A stretch of DNA of 64,000 bases from an uncultured bacterium (GTDB lineage Bacteria > Verrucomicrobiota > Verrucomicrobiia > Verrucomicrobiales > DEV007). The stretch's first letter is position 1; the number at the start of each line of letters is the position of its first letter. Under the pieces are notes generated by a model, which was not told the origin of the DNA, did no database searches, and was given only the letters and a program-made list of their open reading frames with translations. The stretch lies in contig CAXBMO010000014.1 of assembly GCA_963977015.1 (NCBI GenBank), positions 32,001 to 96,000 of the forward strand, in the 5' to 3' direction. This document shows, in pieces, positions 342 through 42,416 of the stretch. The position numbers and the translations under genes were made by a program.

Positions 342-366
342 AACGCCACCCTGACGAATACCACTC
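342..366 (-). promoter_or_regulatory. Putative ECF promoter GAGTG-N16-CGTT upstream of ATPase subunit E
   Basis: One mismatch to the motif repeated across the island; same 16-bp spacer. Confidence 0.55.
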
Positions 367-393
367 AAAGTTTTTTGAGGGCCACATGGCGAA

Positions 394-972
394 TCAAGAA
401 TTGATGGGTGATCCCTCCGATTTGTTGGAGCCAGGGATTTTGCAAAACCCTTGAGGCGGAATGTCGAGGGCGCTGTTGAATTTGCTGGAAAGATTTTGGA
501 AAGCGATCAGCCCGGTCAACTCGACAATGGCGTCCTCGCTGAAATACTCCTTGAGACGATCAAGCAACGAAGTATCGACTGGCTGGCCGGAGCGGGTCAT
601 GGCCTCGGTATATTCCAGGACGACCCGTTCTCGCGCATCGAAGCAATCGCTTGTCTTCCACTCCTCCAGGGCCTCCACCTTCTCCATAGACCCGGACCGC
701 TTGGCCAGGGTCATCGAGTTGATGTCCACGCAGAACCGGCACCAGTTGATCTGCGAGACCCGAACGGTCACTAGCGAACGCAGCGCCGGGTCAATGGGCG
801 AACGCCTGCGATCCAGAACTCCATAAAGAATCGCAACCGCTGCAAACAATCGCGGCACGCGTCCCCAGACTAATCCCGGAACGAGAACCTGGCCATATTT
901 GCGTTTCTGGTTCCAGAAAAACGGGCGCAGATACCAAGGGTATTCATGCAACGGCTTGGTGGAAATTTTCAT
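394..972 (-). CDS. Carboxymuconolactone decarboxylase / AhpD-like protein
   Basis: MKISTKPLHEYPWYLRPFF start; LVTVRVSQINWCRFCVD CxxC motif; EDAIVELT..IAFQN. The longer ORF-track start is antisense to glgX. Confidence 0.85.
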   Translation of the reverse strand: MKISTKPLHEYPWYLRPFFWNQKRKYGQVLVPGLVWGRVPRLFAAVAILYGVLDRRRSPIDPALRSLVTVRVSQINWCRFCVDINSMTLAKRSGSMEKVEALEEWKTSDCFDARERVVLEYTEAMTRSGQPVDTSLLDRLKEYFSEDAIVELTGLIAFQNLSSKFNSALDIPPQGFCKIPGSNKSEGSPINS

Positions 973-1036
973 CCTGATCTTGGTGAATTCATGGTTTTCT
1001 GCAGGAGGTTGGAATTTCAATCTTCCCCTTGGTTCC

Positions 1037-1061
1037 AACGCCGGACGGACCAAATCCCCTC
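1037..1061 (-). promoter_or_regulatory. Putative ECF promoter GAGGG-N16-CGTT (AhpD-like gene)
   Basis: Exact motif; one of a back-to-back divergent pair. Confidence 0.65.
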
Positions 1062-1071
1062 CGGATAAATT

Positions 1072-1096
1072 GAGGGAGCATGGCAAATCCGGCGTT
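1072..1096 (+). promoter_or_regulatory. Putative ECF promoter GAGGG-N16-CGTT (glgX)
   Basis: Exact motif tGAGGGagcatggcaaatccggCGTTgaac. Confidence 0.65.
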
Positions 1097-1116
1097 GAAC
1101 AAAGTAAAGCTGGAGG

Positions 1117-3225
1117 ATGAATATTTCCGTCTCCAACGTAAGTAACCCCATGACCACGCGCTGGCACAGCAACGAAGGATGCTCGTTTCCGGTAGGTGTC
1201 TCCTGGGTTGAGAAGGAGTCCGCCTACAACTTCGCGCTCTACTCTAAGAACGCGCACACCGTAACGCTTCAATTTTACACTCAAGAATGCCTGAACGAAC
1301 CCGTGTTCCGGTTTGAGTTCGACTACCTGAAGAACAAATCCGGGCCAATCTGGCATTGCCGGATTCCCCGCAACCGGCTTGGAAACGCGCGCTACTACGC
1401 CTACCGCATTGCCGGGCCCCCGCCGGGACCGCGATTTGAATGGCACAACTTTGACCCTGAAAAGCTCCTCCTCGACCCCTATGCCAAAACCGTCTACTTC
1501 CCGCCTGACTTTGACCGAGAGGCAGCGATAACTCCCGGCTCGAACGAAGGACGCGCACCTCTGGGGCAGCTTGAAGACATCGGCTGCGATTGCGCTTTTG
1601 ATTGGGGAGAAGACAAGCCGCCGCGTCACGACTCGGACCTCGTCATCTACGAAATGCACGTCCGTGGTTTCACCCGCCATGCCAGTTCCGGGATTGCGGA
1701 GGAAAAACGCGGAACTTTCGCCGGTGTGATCGAGAAAATCCCGCATTTGACCGAGCTGGGCGTTACGGCGGTCGAGTTGATGCCGGTTTTTCAGTTCGAT
1801 CCGCAGGAGAGCAACTACTGGGGCTACATGCCGCTGAGCTTCTTCGCTCCCCATCACGCTTACTCGGTGGATGCCGAACAGTGCCGGCAACACGACGAAT
1901 TCCGCGAAATGGTAAAGGCACTCCACGAGGCCGGCATCGAGGTGATTCTGGATGTTGTCTACAACCACACCGGAGAAGGCGATTGCACGGGGCCGATCTA
2001 CAGCTTCAAGGGGGTCGACAACACCAGTTATTACATGCTGACCGGCGATCCCGAAAATCCCTACGCAAATTTCAGCGGGACGGGAAACACTCTCCATACC
2101 GCCAACCGTGCAGTCCGGGAACTCATCATCGACAGCCTGCGTCACTGGGTGTGCGAATGCCATGTCGATGGGTTCCGTTTTGACCTTGCGTCGGTGTTTA
2201 CTCGAAAATCCGATGGCTCAGTCAGCCCGGAGGAGCCGCCGATTTTCGGAGAGATTCGCTCCCATCCCGAACTGGCGGACATTCGCCTCATCGCCGAACC
2301 GTGGGACGCGAGTGGACTCTACCAGTTGGGCCGGCATTTTCCGGGAACGATGTGGATGCAGTGGAATGGCCGTTATCGCGAAACGTTGCAACGTTTTGTG
2401 CGCGGGGATTTCGGGATGGTCGGCGATCTGATGACAAGGATCTATGGCAGCCCGGATTTCTTTCCGGACGAACGGAGCGAGGCGTGTCATCCCTGGCAAA
2501 GCATCAACTATATAGCGAGCCATGACGGGTTCACTCTCTACGACCTGGTTTCTTACAATGAGAAGAACAACTGGGCCAACGGCCACGACAACACCGATGG
2601 CAACGGAGACTTCAGCTGGAACTCCGGCTGGGAGGGCAACGAAGGCGCTTCGCCGGAAACGCTGCGGCTTCGCAAACAACAGGTGAAGAACTTTTTCTGC
2701 CTGCTTATGCTCTCCAACGGGACGCCGATGTTCCGAATGGGTGACGAGTTTCTCAACTCGCAGGGCGGCAACAACAATCCTTATAACCAGGACAATAAAA
2801 CCAGTTGGCTGGATTGGAATCAGCTCCAAATGCATTCGGATGTGTTCGGCTTTTTCAAGCGAATGATCGCGTTCCGCAAGCAGCATCTCTCCATCTCGCG
2901 CTCGCGCTTTTGGCGCGGCGACATCCAGTGGTATGGGACGGGCCGTGACGTGGATTTGTCCGCGGGTTCAAGACAGTTGGCCTATTACCTGAGCGGGGCT
3001 TCGCAAAATAACGACGATCTCTACGTCATGATTAACGCGAGCGACCGTGACACCGAGTTTAAGATTCAGGAAGGAGTTGCCGGTGACTGGAGAAGAGCAG
3101 TCGATACGGCAAAAATGGCTCCGGATGACATCCTGGAACCCGGCGAGGAGAAACCCCTGCGTTCCGCCGCCTGCAATGTAAAAGGGCGTTCAGTAGTGGT
3201 GATTATTCGGCTGATTTCATCATGA
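1117..3225 (+). CDS. glgX: Glycogen debranching enzyme / isoamylase (GH13)
   Basis: Motifs LLDPYA, IYEMHVRGFT, NYWGY, DVVYNHT, VDGFRFDLA, LIAEPWD, SHDGFTLYDLVSYN. Start may be 1150. Confidence 0.93.
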   Translation: MNISVSNVSNPMTTRWHSNEGCSFPVGVSWVEKESAYNFALYSKNAHTVTLQFYTQECLNEPVFRFEFDYLKNKSGPIWHCRIPRNRLGNARYYAYRIAGPPPGPRFEWHNFDPEKLLLDPYAKTVYFPPDFDREAAITPGSNEGRAPLGQLEDIGCDCAFDWGEDKPPRHDSDLVIYEMHVRGFTRHASSGIAEEKRGTFAGVIEKIPHLTELGVTAVELMPVFQFDPQESNYWGYMPLSFFAPHHAYSVDAEQCRQHDEFREMVKALHEAGIEVILDVVYNHTGEGDCTGPIYSFKGVDNTSYYMLTGDPENPYANFSGTGNTLHTANRAVRELIIDSLRHWVCECHVDGFRFDLASVFTRKSDGSVSPEEPPIFGEIRSHPELADIRLIAEPWDASGLYQLGRHFPGTMWMQWNGRYRETLQRFVRGDFGMVGDLMTRIYGSPDFFPDERSEACHPWQSINYIASHDGFTLYDLVSYNEKNNWANGHDNTDGNGDFSWNSGWEGNEGASPETLRLRKQQVKNFFCLLMLSNGTPMFRMGDEFLNSQGGNNNPYNQDNKTSWLDWNQLQMHSDVFGFFKRMIAFRKQHLSISRSRFWRGDIQWYGTGRDVDLSAGSRQLAYYLSGASQNNDDLYVMINASDRDTEFKIQEGVAGDWRRAVDTAKMAPDDILEPGEEKPLRSAACNVKGRSVVVIIRLISS

Positions 3226-3284: not shown

Positions 3285-3437
3285 ATGACCCTTCGAACTT
3301 CAACAGCCGCTCTGGCCGCAGTCTTAGCCGGCCTCCTATCCGCGTCCTGCGTGACGACGCGAAACTCCACCGCAAACGCAGTTCCGCGATCCACAAGAAA
3401 GAGCCTGATATGTCAAATCGAAACCGTGGTCCGGTAG
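3285..3437 (+). CDS. Small lipoprotein-like ORF (possibly a remnant)
   Basis: MTLRTSTAALAAVLAGLLSASC signal peptide and lipobox; 50 aa; directly follows a motif copy. Confidence 0.3.
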   Translation: MTLRTSTAALAAVLAGLLSASCVTTRNSTANAVPRSTRKSLICQIETVVR

Positions 3438-3694
3438 GTCGCCTTGCCATCGTCCTAGCGCTTCTCACATCAGTTGGCTGCGGTGCCGATCCGGACTCTG
3501 CCGCTTTGACTGTGGTGACCGCCGAGCAGATCCTCCTCGACCAGTTCGAAGGCTGGCGCGACACGGTTCTGATCTGGCCGCAGGAAACGGTCGATGTCGG
3601 AGTCGTGCCACTCGACAAAGGAAAATGGCTGACCCACTGCCACATTCAAGAACATGCCGAAGCCGGGATGATGACGCTGGTGGAGGTCGAATAA
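3410..3694 (+). pseudogene. Multicopper oxidase remnant (lipoprotein signal fused to the C-terminal Cu-binding motif)
   Basis: WRDTVLI...GKWLTHCHIQEHAEAGMM; only 94 aa, all other domains absent. Confidence 0.7.
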
Positions 3695-3954
3695 ATCGAA
3701 AGCCCGCACCCGGGAGGCAGAAATAGCCGTAAGACGGTTAGCGAGACGAGCAGCACGAAGGTGGTTCTTGCTCCCCCGCGCTTTGATGATGATGCCCACC
3801 AGTAACGCACGAGGTGAGGGCGAGCGCAGCAAGAGCTATTCCAATGAAGAACAACAATTTTAGTTTCATTTTTGTATTTGTGGTGTGAATGCGCGGATTA
3901 AGGTTGTTAGGCGATCCCGGACACGAAATGCGGGTCCGCCCATCCGGTCCAACG

Positions 3955-5148
3955 TCACGCGCCGGACAATCCCTCGGAATTTTGAGTGAGCTTCAGAGCG
4001 AAGCGCCGGAAGAGCATCGGCCCGGCCAGGGTAGTCGCCACCAGAACCAGCGTCAGCACGGAGAATTGGCTCTGGGTCAGAGCGAGTGTTGTCAATCCCA
4101 CCTGCGCGAAAACCAGCCCTACTTCGCCGCGAGGGACCATTCCGCTTCCAATCGCGGCGCGGTTCAATCCGCCACCCGGAGCCAGCCAGGGAGCGGCGAT
4201 CTTCGAGCCGACGGCAATCCCCACCAGGAGAACGACGACGCCGAATTCCGCCCATCCCATCCCACCATCGAACGCGATCGAGCTTCCGATGAGCACGAAA
4301 AAGATCGGCGTCAGCAAATCCGTCAACGGCTCGAAGGCTTTTTCCAATGCGGCTTCGTCGCGCTTGGAGAAGACGAGGCCGGCGGCGTAGGAACCGATAA
4401 TTGCAGCCAAACCCACGCGTTCGGCAAGGTGAGCCATGACGAGCAGGTAACCGAACGCGAGGGCAACGAGCACCACTTCACCGCGCAGCCAGTCGGTTAG
4501 CTTGTCGAACAGGCGCACGACGTGGGGGCCCAGGGCAACGGCCGCGCCGAGAAAGAGGACTGCTTGAAACAAGCTTCTTCCAAGGGCGGGCCCGATCGAT
4601 TCCGTCTGCGCGGTGAGGGCGGTGATGACGGAGAGCAGCAGGAGCCCGAGCACGTCATCCATGACGGCGGCACCCATGATGATGCGGGCTTCGGGGGAAT
4701 CCCGGACGCCGAGTTCTTCGATCACCGCCGCCGTCACTCCGATACTCGTCGCGGTGAGGGCTGCGCCCAGGAAGAGGGCCGCCGGAAACGGCCACTGAAT
4801 CAGGAGTCCGATGCCTAGACCGAGACCGAAAGGAAGAATCATCCCGGCGGCGGCAACCGCCAGCGCCGGACGCCAGACCCGCGTGAAATGCTGGAGGCGT
4901 GTTTCCAGCCCGATCTTGAAAAGCAACACGCAGAGGCCGATCTCGGCCAATTCAAAGAAACCATTGGAACCTCCGTTCCCGTTGTCGCCGTGAGCTTCTC
5001 CCGGTTGGATCAGGCCGAGGACCATCGGGCCGAGCAGGACGCCTGCGAGGATCTGCCCCACCACTGCGGGCAATCCAGCGCGCCGGCCAAGCTGTCCGAG
5101 CAAAATTGCCGGTATTATCGCCAGTGGCAGGAGCAGGTGCAGACTCAT
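3955..5148 (-). CDS. Cation:proton antiporter (CPA2/NapA-Kef family)
   Basis: Many TM helices; LFKIGLE, ATSIGVT, GAAVMDDVLG, GMVPRGEVGL. Confidence 0.9.
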   Translation of the reverse strand: MSLHLLLPLAIIPAILLGQLGRRAGLPAVVGQILAGVLLGPMVLGLIQPGEAHGDNGNGGSNGFFELAEIGLCVLLFKIGLETRLQHFTRVWRPALAVAAAGMILPFGLGLGIGLLIQWPFPAALFLGAALTATSIGVTAAVIEELGVRDSPEARIIMGAAVMDDVLGLLLLSVITALTAQTESIGPALGRSLFQAVLFLGAAVALGPHVVRLFDKLTDWLRGEVVLVALAFGYLLVMAHLAERVGLAAIIGSYAAGLVFSKRDEAALEKAFEPLTDLLTPIFFVLIGSSIAFDGGMGWAEFGVVVLLVGIAVGSKIAAPWLAPGGGLNRAAIGSGMVPRGEVGLVFAQVGLTTLALTQSQFSVLTLVLVATTLAGPMLFRRFALKLTQNSEGLSGA

Positions 5149-5154
5149 GACCGA

Positions 5155-5844
5155 TTACTCATCCTTAGACGGGGTGTGTTGCATGCCGTCCGCCGGACCA
5201 CAGTGACAATCGTCAGTCTGAAGCTTGCCCGTCTTATCCGGAGAAGGATGGCAAGGGCATTCGTAACCGGGATCGAGAAACCTTGCCAGCAAACGTTGGA
5301 CGAGCCGGCTGGGGTCTGAATCGTAGATTACCTCCGCGCCAGTCGATTTGTGGATCTGGCTTTCGATCGTTTTCATCACATCCGAAATGCCTCCAGTCCC
5401 GGTGAGAACGCCGATCAGTTTTCCTTCATCATAAGCAATCGCAAATTCTCCCAAGGTTCCGGAACTTCCGCCGACCAGGACTACGATGTCGCTGCTGCGA
5501 ATATTGATCAGCTCGCGTCCCATGAAACCGAGACCGGTGTAAATCAACACATCGTATTCCTGCCAGGGAGAGTTGAAAGTCTCGACATGCTCCTTGAAGC
5601 TGATCGCCGGCGAAATGCCAATGGTGTGACCAGCCTCATCCTTGGCCCCAAAAGCGGCGGCTTGCGGCAGGCCCGGGCAGGCGCCCGTAAGGAGACAACA
5701 TCCTCGCCGGGCCACGGACTTTCCCAACACCCGGCAACGTTGCACAACTTCCCGGTCGTGGTCGCCACTCGCCGAACCCATGACGCCAAAGCGCACCGGA
5801 TGTCCGTTTAGGGGATTGATTCCGATGGTTGGTTGGGTTGGCAT
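5155..5844 (-). CDS. LOG/SLOG family Rossmann-fold protein (TIGR00725-like) with Cys/His tail
   Basis: FGVMGSA, LLTGACPGLP, YTGLGFMGRELINIRSSD, GGSSGTLGE. Start set at MPTQP. Confidence 0.8.
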   Translation of the reverse strand: MPTQPTIGINPLNGHPVRFGVMGSASGDHDREVVQRCRVLGKSVARRGCCLLTGACPGLPQAAAFGAKDEAGHTIGISPAISFKEHVETFNSPWQEYDVLIYTGLGFMGRELINIRSSDIVVLVGGSSGTLGEFAIAYDEGKLIGVLTGTGGISDVMKTIESQIHKSTGAEVIYDSDPSRLVQRLLARFLDPGYECPCHPSPDKTGKLQTDDCHCGPADGMQHTPSKDE

Positions 5845-5904: not shown

Positions 5905-5929
5905 AACGCCGACAAAGGGGCCTACCCTC
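5905..5929 (-). promoter_or_regulatory. Putative ECF promoter GAGGG-N16-CGTT (LOG-antiporter operon)
   Basis: Exact motif. Confidence 0.65.
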
Positions 5930-6030: not shown

Positions 6031-6369
6031 CTATGAACTTCCATCACCTGCGGCTTTCAACTTCGCCAGGTATTTCTCTGGGGCTTCCTTGAAATCGTCG
6101 ATGCACGACTTGCAACAAAACTTCACGGTGGTGCCGTTGTGGTCCATGGTGATTGGGTCGCCCATGCTTCCAAGGTCTTCGTCTGAAACGACGCAGGTTT
6201 TCAAGGGGTAACCATCATCCGTGGCCGACGTTTGGGCCGTGTTGCTGGCTTGATGGTTGTGAGTTCCGTGGTTATGACCATCATCTTTATGGCCGTCATC
6301 GCAAGCGATGATAAGAAAGGCGCCGACAAGGGCTGCAATGGGGGCGCCGATTAACAGTTTCAAGTTCAT
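6031..6369 (-). CDS. His-rich lipoprotein with YHS/TRASH-like metal-binding domain
   Basis: LIIAC lipobox; HNHGTHNH; CVVS...VKFCCKSCIDDF..PEKYL. Confidence 0.8.
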   Translation of the reverse strand: MNLKLLIGAPIAALVGAFLIIACDDGHKDDGHNHGTHNHQASNTAQTSATDDGYPLKTCVVSDEDLGSMGDPITMDHNGTTVKFCCKSCIDDFKEAPEKYLAKLKAAGDGSS

Positions 6370-6390: not shown

Positions 6391-7164
6391 TCAGGATGGT
6401 TCGATTTCGTAGATCCGGTAAACGTTTCCGAGTTCGTCTTCGCTTTTTTGGTAGAGCGGCCAAGCTACGACACGGTCACTCCTGACCCATTTTGGTGGGA
6501 TCGGAGACTGCTTCTGGAGAATGCGATGAAAGTCATCTGGGTTTGCAAATAGGACGATGATCCGGCGAGGATTTGCGCGCAGCGATGCCGCCAGGTTGTC
6601 GATCACTTTCTCCAAAACGGGCCCACGAAACGGGTTGAAGAAGTGGAGCACCGTTGCGTCCTCCGGAATCGGATATTGCGTCGCGTCTTGCTGAATTATT
6701 TCCACGGAGCCACAGCGGAATCGAACACGTTGGCTAGCAACTGCTAAATTCTGTTCCGCCTCATCAGCCAACTCGGGCAGGAACTCTACGCCGATGACCC
6801 TTCGGAGGGGCAATTTTGCGGCCTCCAACAAGACTCTTCCGCGGCCCGCTCCAAAGTCGATGAAAACGTCGTCCTTGTGCAACTCCCTGGGGCAATGGCG
6901 CAGGGCCGCGCGAAATGACAAATAGTTGGTGGGGGCGTAATCGACGTAGTCTTCGCTCTCGATGCCCAACTGGCTCAGCGGCAGGCAACGACTGGTGGAA
7001 ATCCCGAAACGTCGATCGGTCCAGCGGTCGACAGAAAGATTGACCAGGACACCAAATCCTTTCCATGCCCCGTGATGCCGAAACACCTGGACGATCCTTG
7101 CCGGATAACGAGTGAGGCGCACCAAGGGATACTGGGCCGGCTGAGCCGCTGCGGAGTCGCTCAT
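6391..7164 (-). CDS. Class I SAM-dependent methyltransferase
   Basis: FIDFGAGRGR, VIGVEF, QDAT, FFNPF. Confidence 0.8.
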   Translation of the reverse strand: MSDSAAAQPAQYPLVRLTRYPARIVQVFRHHGAWKGFGVLVNLSVDRWTDRRFGISTSRCLPLSQLGIESEDYVDYAPTNYLSFRAALRHCPRELHKDDVFIDFGAGRGRVLLEAAKLPLRRVIGVEFLPELADEAEQNLAVASQRVRFRCGSVEIIQQDATQYPIPEDATVLHFFNPFRGPVLEKVIDNLAASLRANPRRIIVLFANPDDFHRILQKQSPIPPKWVRSDRVVAWPLYQKSEDELGNVYRIYEIEPS

Positions 7165-7173: not shown

Positions 7174-7198
7174 AACTCCGCGAATCGAGCAATCCCTC
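7174..7198 (-). promoter_or_regulatory. Putative ECF promoter GAGGG-N16-AGTT (methyltransferase-YHS operon)
   Basis: One mismatch; the ATG lies 9 nt downstream. Confidence 0.55.
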
Positions 7199-7691: not shown

Positions 7692-7916
7692 AAAGTTAAG
7701 ATTACGGGGAAAATGGGCACCGTCAAAAACGACAAGACAATCCTTTCGGCCGAACAGTCTCAATTTTTTAGGTGATTGGCAAAGATCGTGACGCGGTTCA
7801 GATCACGACGTTCGGCCTCTACGGGTTTGAAAAAAGCGGCCACACTACGGCGAATCGGGGGGCATTCGCACTGACTCGTTTCCAAGGTGTGGCGGACAGG
7901 TTCTGAAAACGGACGT

Positions 7917-33159: not shown

Positions 33160-33203
33160 TTTTGGGGAGAGGATTGAGTTTGGGGATGCTCATCGTCTCC
33201 TTA

Positions 33204-33228
33204 AACGCCGGAGCGTGGCACATCCCTC
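33204..33228 (-). promoter_or_regulatory. Putative ECF promoter GAGGG-N16-CGTT (autoregulatory, cassette 2)
   Basis: Exact motif. Confidence 0.68.
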
Positions 33229-33315
33229 AAGGAGTATGGCCCGGATTCGCCTTGCTTCAATCGCCTTCTTTTTGCAGGCAACCTTCGTCGTGAAAGCAGC
33301 AGTTCACCTCAACGG

Positions 33316-34163: not shown

Positions 34164-34213
34164 TCATCAAGGTTTTCAAAGTGCATCGCGTATCGTAGTT
34201 GGTTCGGAAGCAA

Positions 34214-37200
34214 TCAAGTTTCCATCGAGGTTGTATGGAATCTTGCCCTAATTTCCTCGATCCAGCAATAGAGGGTTGGCACGACGAACACGGTCAGAAT
34301 CGCCACCGTCATGCCCCCGAATGTTGGAATTGCCATGGGCACCATCACATCGGAGCCCCGCCCGGTAGAGGTGAGCACCGGGATAAGGGCCAGAATCGTT
34401 GTCGCCGTGGTCATCATCGCTGGCCGGTTGCGGCGCACGGCGGCTTGGATGGTCGCTTCGCGGATTTCTTCCACCGTCTTTGGCCGATCCTTGTTAAAGC
34501 GCTGGGTCAAATACGTCCCCATCAGCACGCCGTCATCCGTGGCGATGCCAAACAGGGCCAGGAAGCCGACCCACACAGCGACGCTGAGGTTGATGGGGCG
34601 AACCTGGAACAATTCGCGCAGGTCGAAGCCGAAGAGCGATACATTGAGGAACCATTCCTGACCGTAGAGCCATAGCAGGATGAATCCGCCGGACCAAGCG
34701 ACAAAGATGCCGGTGAATACCAAGAGCGTGGTGGTGACGTTCTTAAACTGAAAATAGATAATGATGAAAATGAGAAAGAGTGCCAGCGGGACGACCACCA
34801 TCAGCTTCTTTTCCGCGCGAACCTGATTTTCGTAAGACCCGGTAAAGCGATAGCTGACACCCGCCGGGATTCCCAACTCGCCTTCCTGTTTTTTGCGGTT
34901 CAGGTAACGCGTGGCCTCTTCCACCACATCGACCTCGGCAAAGCCAGGCTTCTTGTCAAAGATAACGTAGCCTACCAGGAAGGTGTCTTCGCTCTTGATC
35001 GCTTGGGGGCCGCGGACGTATTCGATTTCAGCCAATTGCCGGATCGGAATCTGGGTGCCGTCCGGCGCCGGAATGAGGATGCCACCGAGGCTTTCGATGG
35101 TGTCGCGCAACTCACGCTGGTAACGAACCCTGACTGGATATCGCTCGCGACCTTCCACGGTTGTCGTGACGCGGCGACCGCCGATGGCAACTTCGATCAC
35201 GTCCTGGACGCTCTTAATATGCAGGCCGTAGCGGGCGATGGCTTGGCGGTCGATATGAATCTCCAGATACGGCTTGCCCACGATGCGGTCGGCAAACACC
35301 GCCGCGGGTTCGATGGACGGCACTTCTTTCAGCAATCGTTCGATGTCTAGTCCCACTCGCTCGATCGTTTCCAGATCGGGTCCGTAGATCTTCAGTCCCA
35401 TGGGAGCGCGCATCCCGCTTTGTAACATAACGATGCGAGCCGCGATGGGTTGCAGCTTGGGGGCGGAGGTGGAACCGGGAACCTCGGCCGCGGCCACGAT
35501 CGCATCCCAAATGTCGTCGGGCGACTGGATTTCGTCGCGCCATTGCCGGAAAGGCAGGCCTTTCCGATCAGGGATGAGTTCGCCGTCCGGGTCGCGGACA
35601 AATTTCTCCGCTTTCCGGTCATATTTGTAGCGCGTCGGGTGACCGTGCTCGTCCGTCGCGAATTCTGATTTGTAGAGGATGACGGTCTCAAACATCGAGA
35701 TCGGCGCAGGGTCGAGCGGACTCTCCACGCGCCCCAACTTCCCGACCACACTCTCCACTTCCGGGATGGCGCGTATTGCTTGATCCTGGAGCGCCAAGAC
35801 TTCGTAGGCTTCACCAATGGAAGCGTGCGGCATGGCGGTGGGCATCCAGAGATAAGAGCCTTCATCCAGAGGCGGCATGAATTCCTTGCCTAGACCCGGG
35901 AAGGCGTGATAAGCGCCAGACCAAACCGGGTTGTTGCGCGCCCATTCCGGCACGAAACCAAACAAACTCGCGAATCCCTGCCAAACCATCAATCCCGTCA
36001 GGACGACGATCGAGACAAAGCCAATCAGGATCCCCTTGTGATTCAGGCTCCAGCGCAGCATGAGTGGATAAGCTCGAATAAAGAGTAACACGAAAAGTAA
36101 TAGACCGCCGATGAGCGCGATGACGAAAATGAGGTTCAAAATGCCATTCTCCGGACCGAGCGGGAGCCAACTATTAGCCAGGATGATGGCAACAATGAAA
36201 CCGACTGCAATATTGACCGCGTAAAGGCTGCGCTGACTCCAGGCTTCAGGGATGTTTTGCTGCGCTAGCCGGTATCCGGCCAGCAAGATAATGACCATCG
36301 CCGCCCACCAGGGGAACCAACTCGTTGCCAGCGATAATACGAATGCCGCCAAGATGACAGAGCCTTGCACGATCCAGGTATGCCGAGTGCGGTGTTGCGC
36401 GGCTTTCGCGCTGGAAAAGAGTAGATGCGCCAGCGGTGGGATGATGGTGAGGGCCACAATGACCGAGGCGATGAGCGCAAATGTTTTGGTATAAGCCAGG
36501 GGCCGAAAGAGCTTACCCTCCGCTCCTTCCATCGCGAAAACAGGCAAGAAGCTGATGACGGTGGTAAGCACGGCGGTCAGGACCGCGCTGCCGACTTCCG
36601 AGGATGCGCGGTAGACGACTTCAAGTCGGTTGTCTTCCGGTTTGGCTTCTTCCTGATGGTTCAGGATGTTTTCGCAAATTACGATGCCCATGTCGACAAT
36701 CGTGCCAATCGCAATCGCAATGCCGGACAACGCCACGATATTGGCATCGACACCAAACCGCTTCATTGCGATGAAGGTCACCAGGATGGCCAGTGGTAGC
36801 ATCATCGCGATGAGCAGAGAGCTGCGCAGGTGCATCACAATGAGAATGACCACAATGCAGGTAACGAGCACTTCCTCGGTCAAGGCGGTATTGAGCGTCC
36901 CCAGCGTCTCGTTGATGAGTCCGGTTCTATCATAAAACGGCACAACCGCCACTTTACTAACCGTGCCATCCGCCAATGTCATTTCCGGCAAGCCGGGCGA
37001 AATTTCGGCGATCTTCGCCTTCACCCTTTTGATCACTTCCAGCGGATTGGCGCCGTAACGCACCACCACCACACCGCCCACGGCATCGGCCCCCTCCTTA
37101 TCCAGAGCCCCGCGCCGCAAGGCTGGTCCCCGCTCGATCTCCGCGATTTGGGCAAGGGTAACCGGAACATTGTTAGACACCTTCACGACGATCTGTCGAA

Positions 37201-38008
37201 TATCGTCCAGGTTCTCGATGAACCCGAGCCCCCGGATTACGTATTCCGCCCGGTTGATCTCGATGGTGCGTGCGCCGACGTCCAGATTCGACATCTTGAC
37301 CGCGTTAAACACCATCTCCAGCGTCACGCCATAAGCGCGCATCGCATCGGGATCGACGTCGATCTGGTATTCTTTAACGAAGCCGCCAATCGAAGCGGCC
37401 TCCGCCACACCTTCGACCGATTGAAGCGCATAACGAACGTAGAAATCCTGGATACTACGCAGTTCCTGGGGATCCCAACCCGGAGCGGGGTTTCCTTCCT
37501 TATCTCGTCCTTCGAGCGTATACCAATAAACCTGCCCAAGCGCCGTTGCATCAGGCCCCAACATCGGGGTTACGCTTTCCGGCAACGTGCCCACCGGAAG
37601 GCTGTTGAGCTTCTCCAAAACCCGGCTTCTGCTCCAGTAAAACTCCGCCTTTTCGTTGAAGATGATGTAGATCGACGAGAAACCGAAAAAGGAATAGCTG
37701 CGAACGGTCTTTACCTCCGGAATGCCCAGCAGCGACACCGTGAGCGGGTAGGTGATTTGATCCTCAACGTCTTGCGGCGAACGACCCATCCACTCCGTGA
37801 ACACGATTTGCTGGTTCTCGCCGATATCGGGAATGGCATCTACCGGCACCGGATCGCGAGGCAGGCCACCGACTTCCCAATCAAACGGAGCCACGAGAGT
37901 TCCCCAAACCACGAACATGGCCAGGACCAGGAAAACGACGAGCTTGTTCTCCAGGCAAAAGCGGATTACCGCATCGACTGGAGAGAGAGGGGGGGCTTCA
38001 CTTGCCAT
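34214..38008 (-). CDS. cusA: Heavy-metal efflux RND permease (CusA/CzcA family)
   Basis: PVDAIPDIGENQQIVFTEWMGRSPQDVEDQITYPL, LGPDAT, GIAIAIG, EFMPPLDEG, RPAMMTT. Confidence 0.93.
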   Translation of the reverse strand: MASEAPPLSPVDAVIRFCLENKLVVFLVLAMFVVWGTLVAPFDWEVGGLPRDPVPVDAIPDIGENQQIVFTEWMGRSPQDVEDQITYPLTVSLLGIPEVKTVRSYSFFGFSSIYIIFNEKAEFYWSRSRVLEKLNSLPVGTLPESVTPMLGPDATALGQVYWYTLEGRDKEGNPAPGWDPQELRSIQDFYVRYALQSVEGVAEAASIGGFVKEYQIDVDPDAMRAYGVTLEMVFNAVKMSNLDVGARTIEINRAEYVIRGLGFIENLDDIRQIVVKVSNNVPVTLAQIAEIERGPALRRGALDKEGADAVGGVVVVRYGANPLEVIKRVKAKIAEISPGLPEMTLADGTVSKVAVVPFYDRTGLINETLGTLNTALTEEVLVTCIVVILIVMHLRSSLLIAMMLPLAILVTFIAMKRFGVDANIVALSGIAIAIGTIVDMGIVICENILNHQEEAKPEDNRLEVVYRASSEVGSAVLTAVLTTVISFLPVFAMEGAEGKLFRPLAYTKTFALIASVIVALTIIPPLAHLLFSSAKAAQHRTRHTWIVQGSVILAAFVLSLATSWFPWWAAMVIILLAGYRLAQQNIPEAWSQRSLYAVNIAVGFIVAIILANSWLPLGPENGILNLIFVIALIGGLLLFVLLFIRAYPLMLRWSLNHKGILIGFVSIVVLTGLMVWQGFASLFGFVPEWARNNPVWSGAYHAFPGLGKEFMPPLDEGSYLWMPTAMPHASIGEAYEVLALQDQAIRAIPEVESVVGKLGRVESPLDPAPISMFETVILYKSEFATDEHGHPTRYKYDRKAEKFVRDPDGELIPDRKGLPFRQWRDEIQSPDDIWDAIVAAAEVPGSTSAPKLQPIAARIVMLQSGMRAPMGLKIYGPDLETIERVGLDIERLLKEVPSIEPAAVFADRIVGKPYLEIHIDRQAIARYGLHIKSVQDVIEVAIGGRRVTTTVEGRERYPVRVRYQRELRDTIESLGGILIPAPDGTQIPIRQLAEIEYVRGPQAIKSEDTFLVGYVIFDKKPGFAEVDVVEEATRYLNRKKQEGELGIPAGVSYRFTGSYENQVRAEKKLMVVVPLALFLIFIIIYFQFKNVTTTLLVFTGIFVAWSGGFILLWLYGQEWFLNVSLFGFDLRELFQVRPINLSVAVWVGFLALFGIATDDGVLMGTYLTQRFNKDRPKTVEEIREATIQAAVRRNRPAMMTTATTILALIPVLTSTGRGSDVMVPMAIPTFGGMTVAILTVFVVPTLYCWIEEIRARFHTTSMET

Positions 38009-40418
38009 GGTCGTGTGATTCCTTCGGGGATGGAACTAGAGTCTCTTCCACGCTGCCACATTTCAGCATCGCCGCCCCGAAATACGGGTTGCGGATTTCC
38101 TCGCCAAGTTGCAGCCAATCGCCGCCCTGGTTATCGAACGCCATGGGGCAATGGGCGCGGAAAATTTGGTCGATCCCGGCTAGGCCGAACGATCGCAAAC
38201 TACTGATCAAGGTGTCGCTCAATGCTTTGAATTCAACGCGCGCGGTTTTGAGATCCTTGGCTCCGGCCAAATGTGCAGCAGCGGTTTTCAGCGGCTCCAA
38301 GTGCGCCATCCAGGCCATGTGGGCATCGCCTTCCAATAGGGCCATATCGACCTTTGCCAGAGAGTCGCCAACAGCGGTGGTGGCGGATTTTGCCTTTGCC
38401 AAATCATCTTCGGCCAGGGCCGTGCTCACCGCCTCGTAAGCCTGGACGACCGCACCGAGTTGCGCCTGAAAATTCGGGTCCGCCGCGTATTGATCCGGCT
38501 TTTCGGCTTGGGCCGAAATCGTGGCTTTCACGTCGCCGCAGTTCAGCATTTTGTCGCCAAAGTAAGGGTTGCGAATCTCATCGCCAAGTTGCAGCCAATC
38601 GCCGCCTTTGTTGTCGAAGGCCATGGGACAATGGGCGTGAACCAGCGACTTCTCCGGGGCGAGGGCGAAGACATGCGCTGCGCGAATCAGCGTCTGCGAA
38701 AGCGTCGAAAAAGCGACACGGGCAAGCTCGATATCCTTGGCGGAGGCGATCAAGTCAGCGGAGCCCCGGATCGGCGCGAGTTGGTTCATCCACTCCAAGT
38801 GAGCCTCTTCATCGAGCAGGTTCATGTCCACCTTCGCGAGGGCGACGGCGACGGAGTTGGCTGCCGTTTTCGCCTTTTCCAAATCGCTGGCCACGAGCGC
38901 CCTTTGCAACTCCAGGTAGGCCTTATAAACCGTGGTCAGTTGCGCTTCAAACTCCGGGCTTACGTCGTAGGTAAGCATCTTGTGTTCGCCGCGAGCTTGG
39001 CGCGGCCCGCCGTGATCGTGCCCACCGGAACCGCCTCCGCCATTGGGATTCATCATGCTGGGTTTGGCCACGATTTGCAGGGCACTGTCGATCTTGAAAT
39101 TGCCTTGGGCGACGACTCGCTCTCCTTCCATCAACCCTTCTTCAACAATATAATCGCCTCCGGCGCGGGGACCTACCAGGATTTCACGCCCTTCGTAGGT
39201 GGGCTGAGCTTGGTCGGGAACTTCCACGTAAACGACCGCGCGGCGTCCGGTGCGCAAAACGGCGGCTGCGGGCACCACCAGCGGCGCTTCTCGCTTCCTA
39301 ACGCCCGTGTAGTCCAGATCCTCGGCCTTGACCAGGGCCATGCCGCAAACCGGGCAGTCGCCAGGTTCGTCGCGAACGATCTCGGGGTGCATGGGGCTAA
39401 TCCATTTGCCCGCCAATGCCGGAGCAATCACCTTGCCTTCGCCCGCCAGCGTCGCCCTGACGGTGGCGTGGACGAACATGTCCGGCTTCAGCGCTTCATT
39501 CGGGTTTTCCGCGTTCACCCGCACCCGGATCGTCCGCGTTTTGGGATCGAGCGTGGGCGAGACAAACGAAACGATTCCCTCAAAGGTTCGTCCTGGGACG
39601 GCCTCGGCCGTAAACTCAACGGGTTGGCCGTAACGCAGCCAGGGCAGGTCGGACTCGTAGGCCTCCAGCATCACCCAGACCTTGCTCAAATCCGCGATCA
39701 TAAAGAGCGGCTGCCCGGTTTTGACATAGTCCCCCTCGCTGACGTGTTTTTGGATAACGATGCCACCCAGCGGGCTATCGATATCCAGCCGGTCGGTGGT
39801 CTCTTGGTTGCTCTCGATGGACCGGATGCGTTCGGCGGACAGGCCCCAGAGGCGAAGCTTGTCGCGCGCGACCTTTACGTTGGAACCAAAGCGCAACGCG
39901 GAAATGAGTTCGGATTGCGCAGTGAGGAGTTCCGGGCTGTAAACTTGCGCTAAATGGTCGCCCTTGCGGACGGAAATCCCGGTGTAGTCCACGTAGAGCC
40001 GGTCAATCCTGGCGGGGAAGTAGGCGGCCACGGTTTTAGTGCTGGTCTCGTCGAAGGCAACCTTCCCGACCAGCCGGATCTCCGCATCGACGAAGCGACG
40101 CTCGACCGACACAGTGGTGATTTTCGCCAATTGCCGGGCGCTCTCGGTCATCACCAGTTGACGCGGATTATCTTTCCCGGAACCGCCCTTTTTTAGCGGA
40201 ATCAAATCCATGGCGCAAATGGGACATTTTCCGGGCTTCGGCTGCTGGATTTGCGGATGCATGGAGCAGGTCCAAATCGAGACTTGTTCTCCACCGGCGG
40301 GCGAAGAACCATGGTCATGTCCGCCACCGCTAAACAAAGCGCCTAAAGTCCATCCTGCCAAAATCAAGATCGCTCCCAGAGCAAGGGTTTTCGGATTTTT
40401 GAGCAAGGTGAGTTTCAT
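37998..40418 (-). CDS. cusB: RND periplasmic adaptor (CusB-like) with two metal-binding domains and two C-terminal DUF3347 domains
   Basis: WTCSMHPQI..PGKCPICAM, YSPEL, WISPMHPE..CPVCGM, and two HCPMAFDN.GGDWLQ..IRNPYFG. Confidence 0.9.
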   Translation of the reverse strand: MKLTLLKNPKTLALGAILILAGWTLGALFSGGGHDHGSSPAGGEQVSIWTCSMHPQIQQPKPGKCPICAMDLIPLKKGGSGKDNPRQLVMTESARQLAKITTVSVERRFVDAEIRLVGKVAFDETSTKTVAAYFPARIDRLYVDYTGISVRKGDHLAQVYSPELLTAQSELISALRFGSNVKVARDKLRLWGLSAERIRSIESNQETTDRLDIDSPLGGIVIQKHVSEGDYVKTGQPLFMIADLSKVWVMLEAYESDLPWLRYGQPVEFTAEAVPGRTFEGIVSFVSPTLDPKTRTIRVRVNAENPNEALKPDMFVHATVRATLAGEGKVIAPALAGKWISPMHPEIVRDEPGDCPVCGMALVKAEDLDYTGVRKREAPLVVPAAAVLRTGRRAVVYVEVPDQAQPTYEGREILVGPRAGGDYIVEEGLMEGERVVAQGNFKIDSALQIVAKPSMMNPNGGGGSGGHDHGGPRQARGEHKMLTYDVSPEFEAQLTTVYKAYLELQRALVASDLEKAKTAANSVAVALAKVDMNLLDEEAHLEWMNQLAPIRGSADLIASAKDIELARVAFSTLSQTLIRAAHVFALAPEKSLVHAHCPMAFDNKGGDWLQLGDEIRNPYFGDKMLNCGDVKATISAQAEKPDQYAADPNFQAQLGAVVQAYEAVSTALAEDDLAKAKSATTAVGDSLAKVDMALLEGDAHMAWMAHLEPLKTAAAHLAGAKDLKTARVEFKALSDTLISSLRSFGLAGIDQIFRAHCPMAFDNQGGDWLQLGEEIRNPYFGAAMLKCGSVEETLVPSPKESHDHGK

Positions 40419-40421
40419 GTT

Positions 40422-41687
40422 CTATTTGGGACGTTTCCCAGTGAGAGTTTGGAGACGCACCAGGCTTTGGTATTGGTCGGCCACGGCGCGCCAATAGTTG
40501 CGCTCGATTTCCAAAAGAGAGCGTTCGCTGTCGATGAGATCGAGGATGCTCGCACGATCGGCCTTATAGCTTTGCTCGGTGACTTCGACGGCCTGACGCG
40601 CTTTGGGCAGCAACGTCGTGCCATACAGTACGATTCGCTCTTCGGCTTCGGCGAGATCTTGCAGTATGCGTTCCAATTGCGCGAGAAGTTCGTTTTCGCG
40701 GTTGGACAGTGTCTTCTTAGCCGCATTGTATCTAGCCTGTGCCTCGCGTTTTTCCGCTTTATACTTACCTGACCAGAGAGGGATCGAGAAACTGACCTGA
40801 ACCGCCCAGGGATCGTCGCCACTCCCCACCGTGGCCGGATTCAACGCATTGCCGGTATCGAAAGCTCCCACGCCGACAGTCGGATCTGGAATGGGGCTCA
40901 ACTTGCTCAGCTTTACCGCTTCCGCCGCCTTTTCGATACCGCTTTGCAGCGACTTCAACTCCGGGTTTTCGGATAAGAGGGTGGCGACCAATTCTGATCT
41001 GCCGGGTTGATGGCGCGGAGGACTGAGCAACGCGGGAAACTGCAGCGCGTTCGTATTACGCCGACCTAGCAGGGCGTCTATAGCCGCGCTTTGGCTGCCC
41101 CGCTGCTTTTCCAACGCTTGAAGCATGTCGCGATTCTTGGCGATTTCGACTTCCAGCCGCAACAAGGGCGCTAAATCCCCACCGCCGCGAACCTTCTCCT
41201 CCACATTCGGCTGAAGCCGCTCCAATAAGGTGAGAACTTCGCGAGTGATCTTAGTGGCCTCTCCGAGGTAGCCATAATTGTAGTAAGCAACGCCAATCTC
41301 TTTTGCCAAAGCCAGAATTTGGGCCTGGTAGAGGTGCTCGATGGCTTCAGCCTCCTTGGACGCAACTTCTCCGCGAAGCCGCCGTTTCCCAAACCAGGGA
41401 AACATTTGGCTGAAGAACACCTGGTTTTCCTGGGGGCCAGTGCGGGTCTGGATGTCTTCAACGAAGTGGGTTGCCGTCATTTTTGGATCTGGCAGGCTTC
41501 GAGCCTGGGGAATTTTTTCCAGAACAGCCTGATAGTTTTCGTATTCGGCCTGTAACCCCGGATTGTTGGCAATGCCGAATGCGAGGTAGTCGGTTAGGGA
41601 GCTAGACTCAGAAAGCGTGGCGGCCCCCCCTGTGACAGTGATGCAGAACGCCGCCAAAGAAGCGAAGAGAAAGGAAGGTGATGTCAT
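40422..41687 (-). CDS. TolC-family outer membrane efflux protein
   Basis: ANNPGL, SLPDP, SQMFPWFGK, SIPLW, LDLIDSER; directly upstream of the adaptor and RND genes. Confidence 0.9.
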   Translation of the reverse strand: MTSPSFLFASLAAFCITVTGGAATLSESSSLTDYLAFGIANNPGLQAEYENYQAVLEKIPQARSLPDPKMTATHFVEDIQTRTGPQENQVFFSQMFPWFGKRRLRGEVASKEAEAIEHLYQAQILALAKEIGVAYYNYGYLGEATKITREVLTLLERLQPNVEEKVRGGGDLAPLLRLEVEIAKNRDMLQALEKQRGSQSAAIDALLGRRNTNALQFPALLSPPRHQPGRSELVATLLSENPELKSLQSGIEKAAEAVKLSKLSPIPDPTVGVGAFDTGNALNPATVGSGDDPWAVQVSFSIPLWSGKYKAEKREAQARYNAAKKTLSNRENELLAQLERILQDLAEAEERIVLYGTTLLPKARQAVEVTEQSYKADRASILDLIDSERSLLEIERNYWRAVADQYQSLVRLQTLTGKRPK

Positions 41688-41786
41688 GTGTGCGCGTAGA
41701 ACTTTCCTTTCAAAAATCGTCTACAAGGGGAGCGAAGTCAAAGCGCCATCTGGTTGCTCGGTTAGGATTGTGAGGATTGTGGAAGG

Positions 41787-42239
41787 CTATTCTGCTTTCG
41801 GTTTTTTCGGTGCGCCACAATTCGGCATTTGGCTTCCGAAATACGGGTTTTGGACGTGAGCAGCGTGTTCCTTGCTTTGCAGCCAATCTCCGCCGCCACC
41901 CTTCACCATCGGGCAATGCATCACCACATAACCTTCACGCTTTTCGGCCATCTTTATCGCTTCAGCACTGAGCATCTTGAAATGGCCACGGGCCTCTTCG
42001 AGCGATTTAGCCGCGGCAATGGCCTCGGCATGTGGCGCGCAGGCGCTTTCCTCATCGTGATGAGCCATCTTCGCGGCCTCCGCTTTCGCCGTCTCCAGGT
42101 TGTCCTGAAAGAGAGCGTGTGCGACTTTTTGGTAGCCCTGAAGCATGTGGCCCGCATGGGCCTCATGACCTTTGTCTGCGATTGCCGTTGGGACGAGCGC
42201 GGCGCTCAGTAGGATGAGAAGAGTGGTGGTAACTTTCAT
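41787..42239 (-). CDS. Secreted DUF3347-domain protein
   Basis: Signal peptide; HCPMVKGGGGDWLQ...NPYFGSQMPNCG. Confidence 0.82.
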   Translation of the reverse strand: MKVTTTLLILLSAALVPTAIADKGHEAHAGHMLQGYQKVAHALFQDNLETAKAEAAKMAHHDEESACAPHAEAIAAAKSLEEARGHFKMLSAEAIKMAEKREGYVVMHCPMVKGGGGDWLQSKEHAAHVQNPYFGSQMPNCGAPKKPKAE

Positions 42240-42287
42240 GGATGTTTGAGTTTGGGATTTGGAGTTTTGGTAGTTGTCACCGGCTTG

Positions 42288-42312
42288 AACGCCGTCCAAC
42301 TCCCGCCCCCTC
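42288..42312 (-). promoter_or_regulatory. Putative ECF promoter GAGGG-N16-CGTT (DUF3347-tolC-cusB-cusA)
   Basis: Exact motif. Confidence 0.7.
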
Positions 42313-42391
42313 AAACTTTCTCAGAGAAAGCATCGAAGTCCTGAATTTCTAAGGTGGAAACAGCGGCTCGCGAGAATATTCAGAAAAATAT

Positions 42392-42416
42392 GAGGGATGA
42401 TTCTTTGGGCGTCGTT
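42392..42416 (+). promoter_or_regulatory. Putative ECF promoter GAGGG-N16-CGTT (small secreted protein)
   Basis: Exact motif, divergent from the efflux promoter. Confidence 0.6.

Follow-up and report, generated by a model that had tools for sequence, protein, structure and literature searches.

Two sensor/sigma cassettes on a putative mobile island

We analyzed a 64,000-nucleotide (nt) stretch of DNA from an uncultured bacterium of the Verrucomicrobiota, referred to here as the window, in which a two-block motif, GAGGG-N16-CGTT, stands ahead of metal-resistance and metabolic genes on what appears to be an integrative island of ~60.6 kb. The window corresponds to positions 32001-96000 of contig C14 in a 6.89-Mb assembly of 51 contigs with 56% G+C, and coordinates refer to the window unless they are prefixed with a contig. 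The island encodes two intact extracytoplasmic function (ECF) sigma factors, SigA and SigB, each at the end of a cassette that begins with an anti-sigma candidate and a sensor. The cassettes are composed as follows (aa, amino acids).

25697-27188, minus strand: cassette 1 (anti-sigma candidate, CnrX-like sensor, ECF sigma SigA)
26823-27188, minus strand: anti-sigma candidate of cassette 1, 121 aa, single-pass
26308-26826, minus strand: sensor of cassette 1, 172 aa, membrane-anchored, with a CxxxC motif
25697-26263, minus strand: SigA, an ECF sigma of 188 aa
30982-33159, minus strand: cassette 2 (anti-sigma candidate, sensor, frameshifted sigma copy, intact sigma SigB)
32845-33159, minus strand: anti-sigma candidate of cassette 2, 104 aa, single-pass
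32377-32832, minus strand: sensor of cassette 2, a CnrX/NccX homologue of 151 aa
31710-32370, minus strand: second sigma copy in tandem, frameshifted and readable only across at least two frames
30982-31668, minus strand: SigB, an intact ECF sigma

Both cassettes have the gene order anti-sigma candidate at -2, CnrX-like protein at -1 and ECF sigma. The sensor of cassette 2 matches CnrX and NccX over its full length (E 7e-15 and 6e-14), with His, His, His and Met ligand positions aligned to theirs. Likeness to CnrH, as proposed in the initial annotation, holds for the gene order and for this one sensor, but the nearest solved relatives of the sigma are of the AlgU/RpoE type. The sensor of cassette 1 is only marginally similar and has a CxxxC motif instead. 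Sensors of the SigA clade at orthologous loci (L006-L021) share the motif LHxxYxPxCxxxC and marginal similarity to CnrX, and they may form a thiol-based subfamily of the CnrX fold that responds to soft metals or redox state. The frameshifted sigma copy in cassette 2 is 63% identical to SigB over residues 2-137, with region 2 intact and region 4 split between frames; it represents either a pseudogene copy of SigB or an assembly error.

The anti-sigma candidates are 104-121 aa long, with one transmembrane (TM) helix and a conserved VWxxI motif, a topology that fits a CnrY-like anti-sigma; they gave no Pfam match. We modeled SigA together with residues 1-64 of the open reading frame (ORF) upstream and obtained ipSAE values of 0.69, 0.69 and 0.66, as compared with 0.00 for the best of three controls. 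The partner had a pLDDT of 66, the runs agreed in at least 89% of their contacts, and the contacts lie on both sigma-2 and sigma-4. The same mark is reached by 116 of 157 solved complexes and 2 of 215 mismatched pairs, a calibration that is rough because our own alignments were used. The model supports binding between the sigma and the putative anti-sigma, as likeness and not as proof.

A two-block motif confined largely to the island

Searching the window for GAGGG-N16/17-CGTT, we found 12 exact matches, as compared with 1.44 ± 1.23 in 100 dinucleotide shuffles. The highest count in any shuffle was 6, and 0 of the 100 reached 12. The exact copies lie at 1037, 1072, 3224, 5905, 16709, 25613, 30919, 33204, 42288 and 42392, as well as at 3951 and 116, and a search allowing one mismatch recovered those at 342 (GAGTG), 7174 (GAGTT) and 27213 (TGTT in the second block). 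The initial annotation had picked out 13 sites by eye. All 13 are present at the positions it gave, ten of them exact and three with a single mismatch (342, 7174 and 27213), and the one 17-nt spacer that it reported is that of 16709. As it also claimed, each listed site is oriented toward a nearby start codon, with an ATG 9-118 nt downstream in all 13 cases, and two of them (27213 and 33204) stand directly upstream of the cassettes. Its count of 13 transcription units fronted by the motif has to be raised to 14-15 candidates, with the addition of 3951 and C14:24845.

Across the genome, the N16 form has 56 matches, or 0.52 per 64 kb. Spacers of 12-21 nt give 44-77 matches each, indicating that the genome as a whole has no spacer preference. 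Inside the 60,567-bp island we counted 12 of the 56 N16 matches where 0.39 would be expected (Poisson P = 1.8e-14). The comparison of motif density inside and outside the island, which the initial annotation had proposed, thus shows that the motif is not equally common genome-wide. The lack of genome-wide enrichment led us to reject a housekeeping promoter as the explanation.

A genome scan with a matrix derived from the 13 sites is circular for these training sites, and leave-one-out scoring was used instead. Scored with matrices made from the other twelve, the 13 sites reach 14.6-29.4 bits each. Outside the island, between 0 and 10 positions equal or beat the score of a given site, with the exception of the weakest, 3224, for which there are 26. 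The best matches among non-training positions are C14:24845, inside the island, and a variant family on contigs C42 and C8. This family, TGTGGGGT-N13-CGGCGTTTAAG, accounts for most of the high-scoring positions outside the island; its sites on C42 and at one C8 locus adjoin paralogous sensor/sigma cassettes and metal pumps, and these paralogous loci hold the only comparable sites outside the island.

Contig C42 (28.8 kb) carries a second metal-resistance locus, fronted by the variant motif, with two more anti-sigma/sensor/sigma cassettes, two resistance-nodulation-division (RND) pumps, a cation diffusion facilitator (CDF), a P-type ATPase and a DOT1-like methyltransferase. At C8:85723-89265 there is just one cassette, which carries this variant as well.

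The sites of the island are listed below with the distance to the start codon; scores are from the leave-one-out matrices.

342-366, minus strand: promoter-like site, GAGTG variant; ATG of V-type ATPase (V-ATPase) subunit E 18 nt downstream; 25.6 bits
1037-1061, minus strand: promoter-like site, divergent partner of 1072; in-frame ATG at 972, 64 nt downstream
1072-1096, plus strand: promoter-like site; ATG at 1117, 20 nt downstream; 25.1 bits
3224-3248, plus strand: weakest promoter-like site; ATG at 3285, 36 nt downstream; 14.6 bits
3951-3975, minus strand: promoter-like site absent from the initial list, intergenic; ATG at 3869, 81 nt downstream
5905-5929, minus strand: promoter-like site; ATG at 5844, 60 nt downstream
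7174-7198, minus strand: promoter-like site, GAGTT variant; ATG at 7164, 9 nt downstream
16709-16734, minus strand: promoter-like site, 17-nt spacer; start codon at 16599 or 16590, 109 or 118 nt downstream
25613-25637, minus strand: promoter-like site, 63 nt past the SigA stop codon; ATG at 25558, 54 nt downstream
27213-27237, minus strand: promoter-like site of cassette 1, GGTGTT variant; ATG at 27188, 24 nt downstream; 18.0 bits
30919-30943, minus strand: promoter-like site ahead of the DUF5676, M50 and phosphorylase genes
33204-33228, minus strand: promoter-like site of cassette 2; ATG at 33159, 44 nt downstream
42288-42312, minus strand: promoter-like site; ATG at 42239, 48 nt downstream
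42392-42416, plus strand: best-scoring promoter-like site; ATG at 42444, 27 nt downstream
C14:24845, minus strand: promoter-like site 7 kb left of the window, inside the island, from the matrix scan
116-140, minus strand: exact match inside the coding region of V-ATPase subunit E

The 14 window sites other than 116, together with C14:24845, are intergenic, and all sites except 116 point at an ATG-initiated ORF 9-118 nt downstream. Aligned, they give the extended consensus A/T-rich-tT-GAGGGr-N12-cGGCGTT-gaA, in which an A/T-rich run ending in T precedes GAGGG, a purine follows it, cGG precedes CGTT and gaA comes after. Site 116 has neither the A/T-rich run upstream nor the GG that precedes CGTT, and because it is without this flanking consensus it is probably a chance match. 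The spacer keeps its length (16 nt, or 17 nt at one site) and not its sequence, indicating a bipartite motif as opposed to repeated DNA. A repeat element was likewise rejected on the grounds that neither the spacer nor the flanks beyond ~8 nt are conserved. Judged from the alignment, the geometry is that of a two-block promoter, unlike a repeat or a palindromic operator. In silico, the candidate autoregulatory sites 27213 and 33204 head the cassettes and 42288 heads an operon for an outer-membrane factor, a membrane fusion protein and a CusA/CzcA pump; the presence of the motif ahead of each cassette implies autoregulation.

Genes behind the sites

Family assignments for the genes downstream of the sites are as follows.

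1-323, minus strand: V-ATPase operon, subunit E part, starting at 323 and leaving the window at its left edge (Pfam, NCBIfam)
C14:25023-32000, minus strand: remainder of the V-ATPase operon, with a DUF2764/C-like gene and subunits A, B, D, I and K (Pfam, NCBIfam)
394-972, minus strand: AhpD/CMD-family, YciW-related protein (PF02627 4e-10; NF053654 4.6e-40, below its cutoff)
1117-3225, plus strand: GlgX-like glycogen debranching enzyme (TIGR02100 4e-179, 596.9 bits, just under the 640.9 cutoff)
3285-3694, plus strand: 50-aa signal-peptide-like ORF, then an out-of-frame 94-aa C-terminal fragment of a multicopper oxidase
3738-3869, minus strand: 43-aa lipoprotein-like ORF, His/Cys-rich
5155-5844, minus strand: LOG-like SLOG/TIGR00725 protein, behind 5905
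3955-5148, minus strand: CPA2 monovalent cation:proton antiporter, behind 5905 after the LOG-like gene
6391-7164, minus strand: S-adenosylmethionine-dependent methyltransferase, behind 7174
6031-6369, minus strand: YHS/TRASH-domain protein, behind 7174 after the methyltransferase
15595-16590, minus strand: 331-aa protein without a Pfam match, behind 16709
16768-25558, minus strand: eight-gene operon behind 25613 (Metal_resist-domain protein, two unknown proteins, glutamate dehydrogenase, reductase, one unknown protein, cytochrome, oxidase)
22592-24004, minus strand: glutamate dehydrogenase (GDH), in the eight-gene operon
20737-22674, minus strand: FAD/NAD/2Fe-2S reductase, in the eight-gene operon
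19206-19997, minus strand: multihaem cytochrome c, in the eight-gene operon
16768-19125, minus strand: CopA-type multicopper oxidase, last gene of the eight-gene operon
30362-30667, minus strand: DUF5676 protein with two TM helices, behind 30919
29113-30411, minus strand: M50 site-2-type metalloprotease, between the DUF5676 gene and the phosphorylase
27374-29110, minus strand: alpha-glucan-family phosphorylase (TIGR02094 6e-169, above its cutoff)
33660-42239, minus strand: heavy-metal efflux operon (DUF3347 protein, outer-membrane factor, adaptor, CusA/CzcA RND pump, DmeF-like CDF)
42444-42701, plus strand: 85-aa secreted or membrane protein without a family match, behind 42392

Behind C14:24845 lie small ORFs, an amino-acid permease and a P-type ATPase with heavy-metal-binding domains. 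The gene identities proposed in the initial annotation have mostly held up, while two placements required correction: the V-ATPase runs leftward from 323 on the minus strand and is not part of the 16768-25558 operon, and the operon-mates of GDH are the flavin reductase, the multihaem cytochrome and the oxidase. The genome holds another GlgX, on contig C4, to which the island copy is 39% identical, and another GDH, on contig C2, to which the island copy is 55% identical; the V-ATPase is the sole one in the genome.

Since the reductase sits between GDH and the multihaem cytochrome and oxidase, the products of this operon may carry electrons from glutamate to the periplasm. The reductase has an N-terminal extension of ~300 residues without a family match. 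The 331-aa protein behind 16709 is GNAT-like by Atlas leads only, with TM scores of 0.74-0.79 to clusters in which 58-100% of members carry Acetyltransf_1. With an ATG only 9 nt downstream, a transcript from 7174 would be nearly leaderless. The gene at 3285-3694 looks broken or like a remnant.

The adaptor of the efflux operon is CusB/CzcB-like, with HMBD and DUF3347 domains. At 33316-34163 on the minus strand, the DmeF-like CDF ORF, of only 167 aa, is followed by a 105-aa ORF without a family match. The CDF gene is probably truncated, since its ORF matches positions 27-155 in a model of 309 positions.

The island and its mobility

The features that bear on mobility lie toward the two ends of the island.

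C14:16546-17862: tyrosine-recombinase gene (PF00589 2.4e-9)
C14:16346-16424: tRNA-like direct repeat, left copy, beside the tyrosine-recombinase gene
44834-44912: tRNA-like direct repeat, right copy
43053-43415: DUF2958 gene, near the right end
44983-45162: HTH_17 excisionase-like gene, near the right end

The right copy of the repeat is the probable right-hand attachment (att) site of the ~60.6-kb island, and the integrative element so delimited would contain all motif copies. Both sigmas and both anti-sigma candidates lie with them inside it, and the motif is rare elsewhere in the genome. The base composition of the island is the same as that of the genome. No intact tRNA or tmRNA was called at the island ends by ARAGORN in the window plus 20 kb to its left, where there are tRNA-like fragments only, and an Rfam search of 42000-48000 gave no match. 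Two different tRNA-like 3' fragments, neither of them called by ARAGORN or Rfam, lie close together at 44870-44990 and 45400-45470 (minus strand), which suggests remnants of nested or successive integration.

One segment of the island, 7218-16599, has no copy of the motif in either the exact or the one-mismatch search; it holds a MerR-family regulator (10187-10711). Also in this segment, within 7917-14122 on the minus strand, are a CopZ-zinc-finger/MerT/HMA fusion, an HMA protein, a MetA-pathway-like outer-membrane protein, and a decarboxylase and acyl-CoA ligase pair whose best models are 'exosortase A system-associated' ones. Outside the island, an open frame of at least 3122 aa occupies 54633-63998 on the plus strand and runs off the right end of the window. 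A search of public sequencing runs with window 25500-33300 returned five DNA runs that hold the sequence, all labelled marine metagenome, with a share of 0.05-0.40.

Footprint and covariation in related genomes

SigA-like sigmas are present in 37 of 41 relatives at E <= 1e-20, a threshold that also admits paralogues. The closest relatives of SigA (44-56% identity) come nearly all from Verrucomicrobiota, and matches of 34-39% identity come from Acidobacteriota. Our first locus set consisted of the 17 loci with the closest SigA matches (43-62% identity), and the three-gene cassette was recognizable in 14 of them. At nine of the 17 loci, a site of at least 12 bits precedes the sigma start by 874-1344 nt on the same strand, which places it ahead of the anti-sigma gene, i.e., of the three-gene cassette. 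At six of the 17, a site of at least 10 bits follows the sigma stop codon by 20-72 nt, as 25613 does here. For 30 Verrucomicrobiota loci from GTDB species representatives, a set that partly overlaps the first and in which some contigs do not extend far enough upstream, 45 matches to a relaxed pattern were counted, as compared with 10 for a reversed control, and half of the loci (15/30) have a site 700-1500 nt upstream.

We then compared the sigma-4 helix with the pentamer in the sigma's own promoter and observed the following pairings.

Tyr in the helix (R-L/I/V-Y-R/K/H-A): GAGGG or AAGGG, A at base 2, 13 of 13
Ala in the helix (RLAKAR): GGGGG, 3 of 3
Arg in the helix (R-x-R-R-A-K): GTGGG, 4 of 4

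The Arg group consists of SigD of C42, the C8 sigma and sigmas in genomes G010 and G002. By sequence, SigB belongs to the Arg lineage (51-53% identity), yet it has Tyr and its own promoter has GAGGG; both island sigmas may therefore read the same sites. Such covariation matches what direct recognition of a -35 element would predict.

An autoregulated ECF regulon as the favored explanation

We favor the explanation, with a probability of roughly 0.8, that the island's own ECF sigmas recognize the motif as their promoter, and that an autoregulated regulon in the style of CnrYXH has spread over a mobile island. In such a promoter, the -35 element would be GAGGG and the -10 element CGTT, or more fully GGCGTT. 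By analogy with CnrYXH, a periplasmic signal, probably a metal ion, would reach the CnrX-like sensor, the anti-sigma would then release the sigma, and RNA polymerase carrying the released sigma would transcribe the whole set of motif-fronted units. Besides the two cassettes, ~12-13 further transcription units on the ~60-kb integrase-bearing island would carry the promoter. The set would include RND/CDF efflux, the operon for oxidase, GDH, reductase and cytochrome, the P-type ATPase with the amino-acid permease, the V-ATPase, the CPA2 antiporter, the GlgX-like and phosphorylase glucan-degrading enzymes, the M50 protease, and small or unknown proteins. Transcription presumably starts at the sites, each of which would be read by SigA, SigB or both. 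Sub-classes of the -10 flank (..GTTgAAC vs ..GTTtAAG) are suggestive of a separation between SigA and SigB targets, although the sites are few. The metabolic genes may serve energy or pH homeostasis under stress, and the M50 peptidase could process the anti-sigma factors, giving positive feedback.

Several observations weigh against this explanation. SigA is nearest among solved sigmas to the AlgU/RpoE type (E 5e-28 to 2e-24), with CnrH (4cxf) at 2e-9. The cassette 1 sensor matches NccX only at E 0.03 and falls below the cutoff for Pfam Metal_resist, and the anti-sigma candidates show no sequence similarity to CnrY or to any solved chain. A CnrH-CnrY complex has been solved, and likeness to it may be what the pass of the fold model reflects. 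Site 3224 is weak and stands ahead of an apparently broken gene, and the public-run search returned no RNA run holding the sequence. At the 17 SigA-orthologue loci, four have no upstream site and four more have only a weaker match there. The exact pattern is not enriched over the reversed-pattern control in 24 related genomes, because orthologues use variants such as AAGGG, GGGGG, GGTGTT, GGCATT and GGAGTT. The covariation rests on about two independent evolutionary changes, which makes it suggestive and not a statistical proof.

The breadth of the regulon is also poorly matched elsewhere. Sixteen related stretches of 7-20 kb around orthologous sigmas hold only 0-5 relaxed-pattern sites each (27 in total vs 8 in the control). 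Orthologues of the island GlgX occur in 7 of 120 other genomes of the order, with the motif upstream in 0 of 7; an orthologue of the V-ATPase occurs in 1 of 120, with a match in the coding region only and no motif upstream (0 of 1). Since these orthologues are without the motif, the promoter wiring was not inherited with the genes, and the large regulon appears to be an expansion specific to this island and not a conserved feature. The ECF-regulon interpretation of the initial annotation gains from the gene-oriented, island-confined motif, its place ahead of both cassettes, its conservation at the syntenic position in other genomes and the sigma-4 covariation, whereas the coupling that it proposed is not conserved.

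The same absence of the motif from glgX and V-ATPase orthologues, along with the weakness of 3224, would suit a reading in which the sites are genuine ECF promoters that are read mainly by a sigma encoded elsewhere, or of which only a few are functional, the cassettes and efflux being active and the glgX, phosphorylase, V-ATPase and small-ORF sites being weak or silent look-alikes. An obvious candidate for such a sigma is the SigA paralogue on C42, which is 60% identical to SigA and has a GAGGG...GGTGTT site ahead of its own cassette, and the genome has dozens of ECF-like candidates (52 at first look). However, sites at metabolic genes score as high as those of the cassettes (25.1 bits for 1072 and 25.6 for 342, against 18.0 for 27213), all sites are rightly oriented and spaced relative to start codons, and all lie within one island that carries two matching sigmas. 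We therefore regard this reading as unlikely, though it is the strongest competitor of those considered here.

It is considerably less probable that the motif is the site of a DNA-binding repressor or activator, or a structural or repeat element. The island does encode a MerR-family regulator, but the segment linked to it has no copies of the motif. Two short blocks separated by a non-conserved spacer of fixed 16-nt length, with no palindrome, are not what such a site would look like; the motif is always gene-oriented, with an A/T-rich upstream flank and CGT in its downstream block, it covaries with the sigma-4 helix, and it stands ahead of ECF cassettes in many genomes. A pentamer and a tetramer are short, and ~0.5 matches per 64 kb would arise by chance, but chance or base composition as the source of the cluster is effectively refuted by the island count and the shuffles given above, by the conserved flanks and by the intergenic, gene-oriented placement.

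An extension of the favored explanation, which we offer only tentatively, is that the island is a host-independent stress regulon with two inputs, in which two modules of different ligand chemistry feed one promoter type. One sensor may be the His/Met CnrX-like protein and the other the CxxxC subfamily, and the shared promoter may have been placed ahead of ~15 operons of unrelated origin (V-ATPase, glucan catabolism, the chain of GDH, reductase, cytochrome and oxidase, and efflux genes), so that cargo captured by the element came under its own transcription system.

Regulons of ECF sigmas tend to be small and local. If the autoregulated regulon described here is real, the island would show with unusual clarity how, in nature, a mobile element can carry its own sigmas, its own sensors and a matching promoter on most of its cargo, and its expression would be independent of promoter recognition by the host. 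In a simple specificity code, the Tyr, Ala or Arg residue would determine base 2 of the -35 element, a testable rule that pairs one sigma-4 residue with one base. The analysis also brings to light a CnrX-like sensor subfamily with a conserved CxxxC motif. It raises the hypothesis of a link, in this uncultured marine phylum, between metal or envelope stress on the one hand and ion pumping (V-ATPase, CPA2) and the catabolism of glucan and glutamate on the other, and the island would be a ready source of orthogonal sigma, promoter and anti-sigma parts.

Comparison with known systems

Among characterized systems, CnrYXH-CnrCBAT of Cupriavidus metallidurans offers the closest arrangement. It shares the order of a single-TM anti-sigma (here a candidate) with a short cytoplasmic N-terminus, a membrane-anchored periplasmic CnrX-type sensor and an ECF sigma, and it likewise has a promoter ahead of its own cassette and ahead of an RND heavy-metal efflux operon. 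CnrH belongs to ECF20, now ECF291. In the portion of the supplement of Casas-Pastor et al. (2021, PMC7826278) that covers ECF291, the anti-sigma is placed at -2 and a CnrX-like heavy-metal resistance protein at -1, and the genomic contexts include multicopper oxidase, CopB and E1-E2 ATPase genes; multicopper oxidase and P-type ATPase genes are also nearby here. The promoter type resembles cnrYp, for which PMC13492112 gives CCGAGG and a verified CCGTATA element.

The consensus of ECF291 is printed as ATACGC / CCCTCA in Table 4 of that 2026 paper (PMC13492112). On the other strand this would read TGAGGG / GCGTAT, close to the motif described here. The promoter strings TCTCC/TACGCA, which the PMC7826278 supplement prints for ECF291, and those of the table resemble, once reverse-complemented, a -35 of the GAGGG or GGAGA type and a -10 of the CGTA type, so the published strand may be wrong.

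There are also differences from CnrYXH and ECF291. The account of CnrH in PMC6851896 names two promoters, cnrYp and cnrCp, whereas here there are ~15, non-metal genes included. The supplementary entry for ECF291 reports it from Proteobacteria (98.45%) and Cyanobacteria (1.55%) (PMC7826278), while the subfamily here is found in Verrucomicrobiota, with more distant relatives in Acidobacteriota. Among solved structures, CnrH is not the closest to the island sigma; the cassette 1 sensor belongs to a subfamily with a conserved CxxxC and marginal CnrX similarity; and the anti-sigma candidates have no CnrY sequence similarity. The papers returned by searches of the CnrH, CnrX and ECF20 literature, which did not query V-ATPase, glycogen enzymes, GDH or Verrucomicrobia, describe no such regulon.

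RpoE/AlgU (ECF02) supplies the best matches to SigA among solved sigmas (E 5e-28 to 2e-24), and a further likeness is the M50 site-2-type protease encoded in the putative regulon. In contrast, the ECF02 consensus is TTGAAC / GTCTAA according to Table 4 of PMC13492112, there is no RseA/RseB-type partner here, and the putative anti-sigma lies upstream of the sigma and not downstream.

The initial annotation did not recognize its proposed program as described. That does not hold for the general design, since an island with a self-contained ECF regulon, GI 6 of Streptomyces coelicolor, is in print (bioRxiv 10.1101/247056), and the authors of that preprint knew of one other such case. As described there, GI 6 resembles the present island in being a horizontally acquired element with an ECF sigma, one or more anti-sigmas and a contiguous regulon with shared -35 and -10 motifs, and it too is read as a transferable, self-contained transcriptional unit. 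It differs in phylum, in sensor type and in its cargo, which is for small-molecule metabolism, and the regulon of GI 6 comes with expression data from induction of the sigma, whereas that of the present island is predicted from sequence. What the present island would add to that design is two sensor/sigma cassettes, together with a cargo of metal resistance, a V-ATPase and glucan catabolism.

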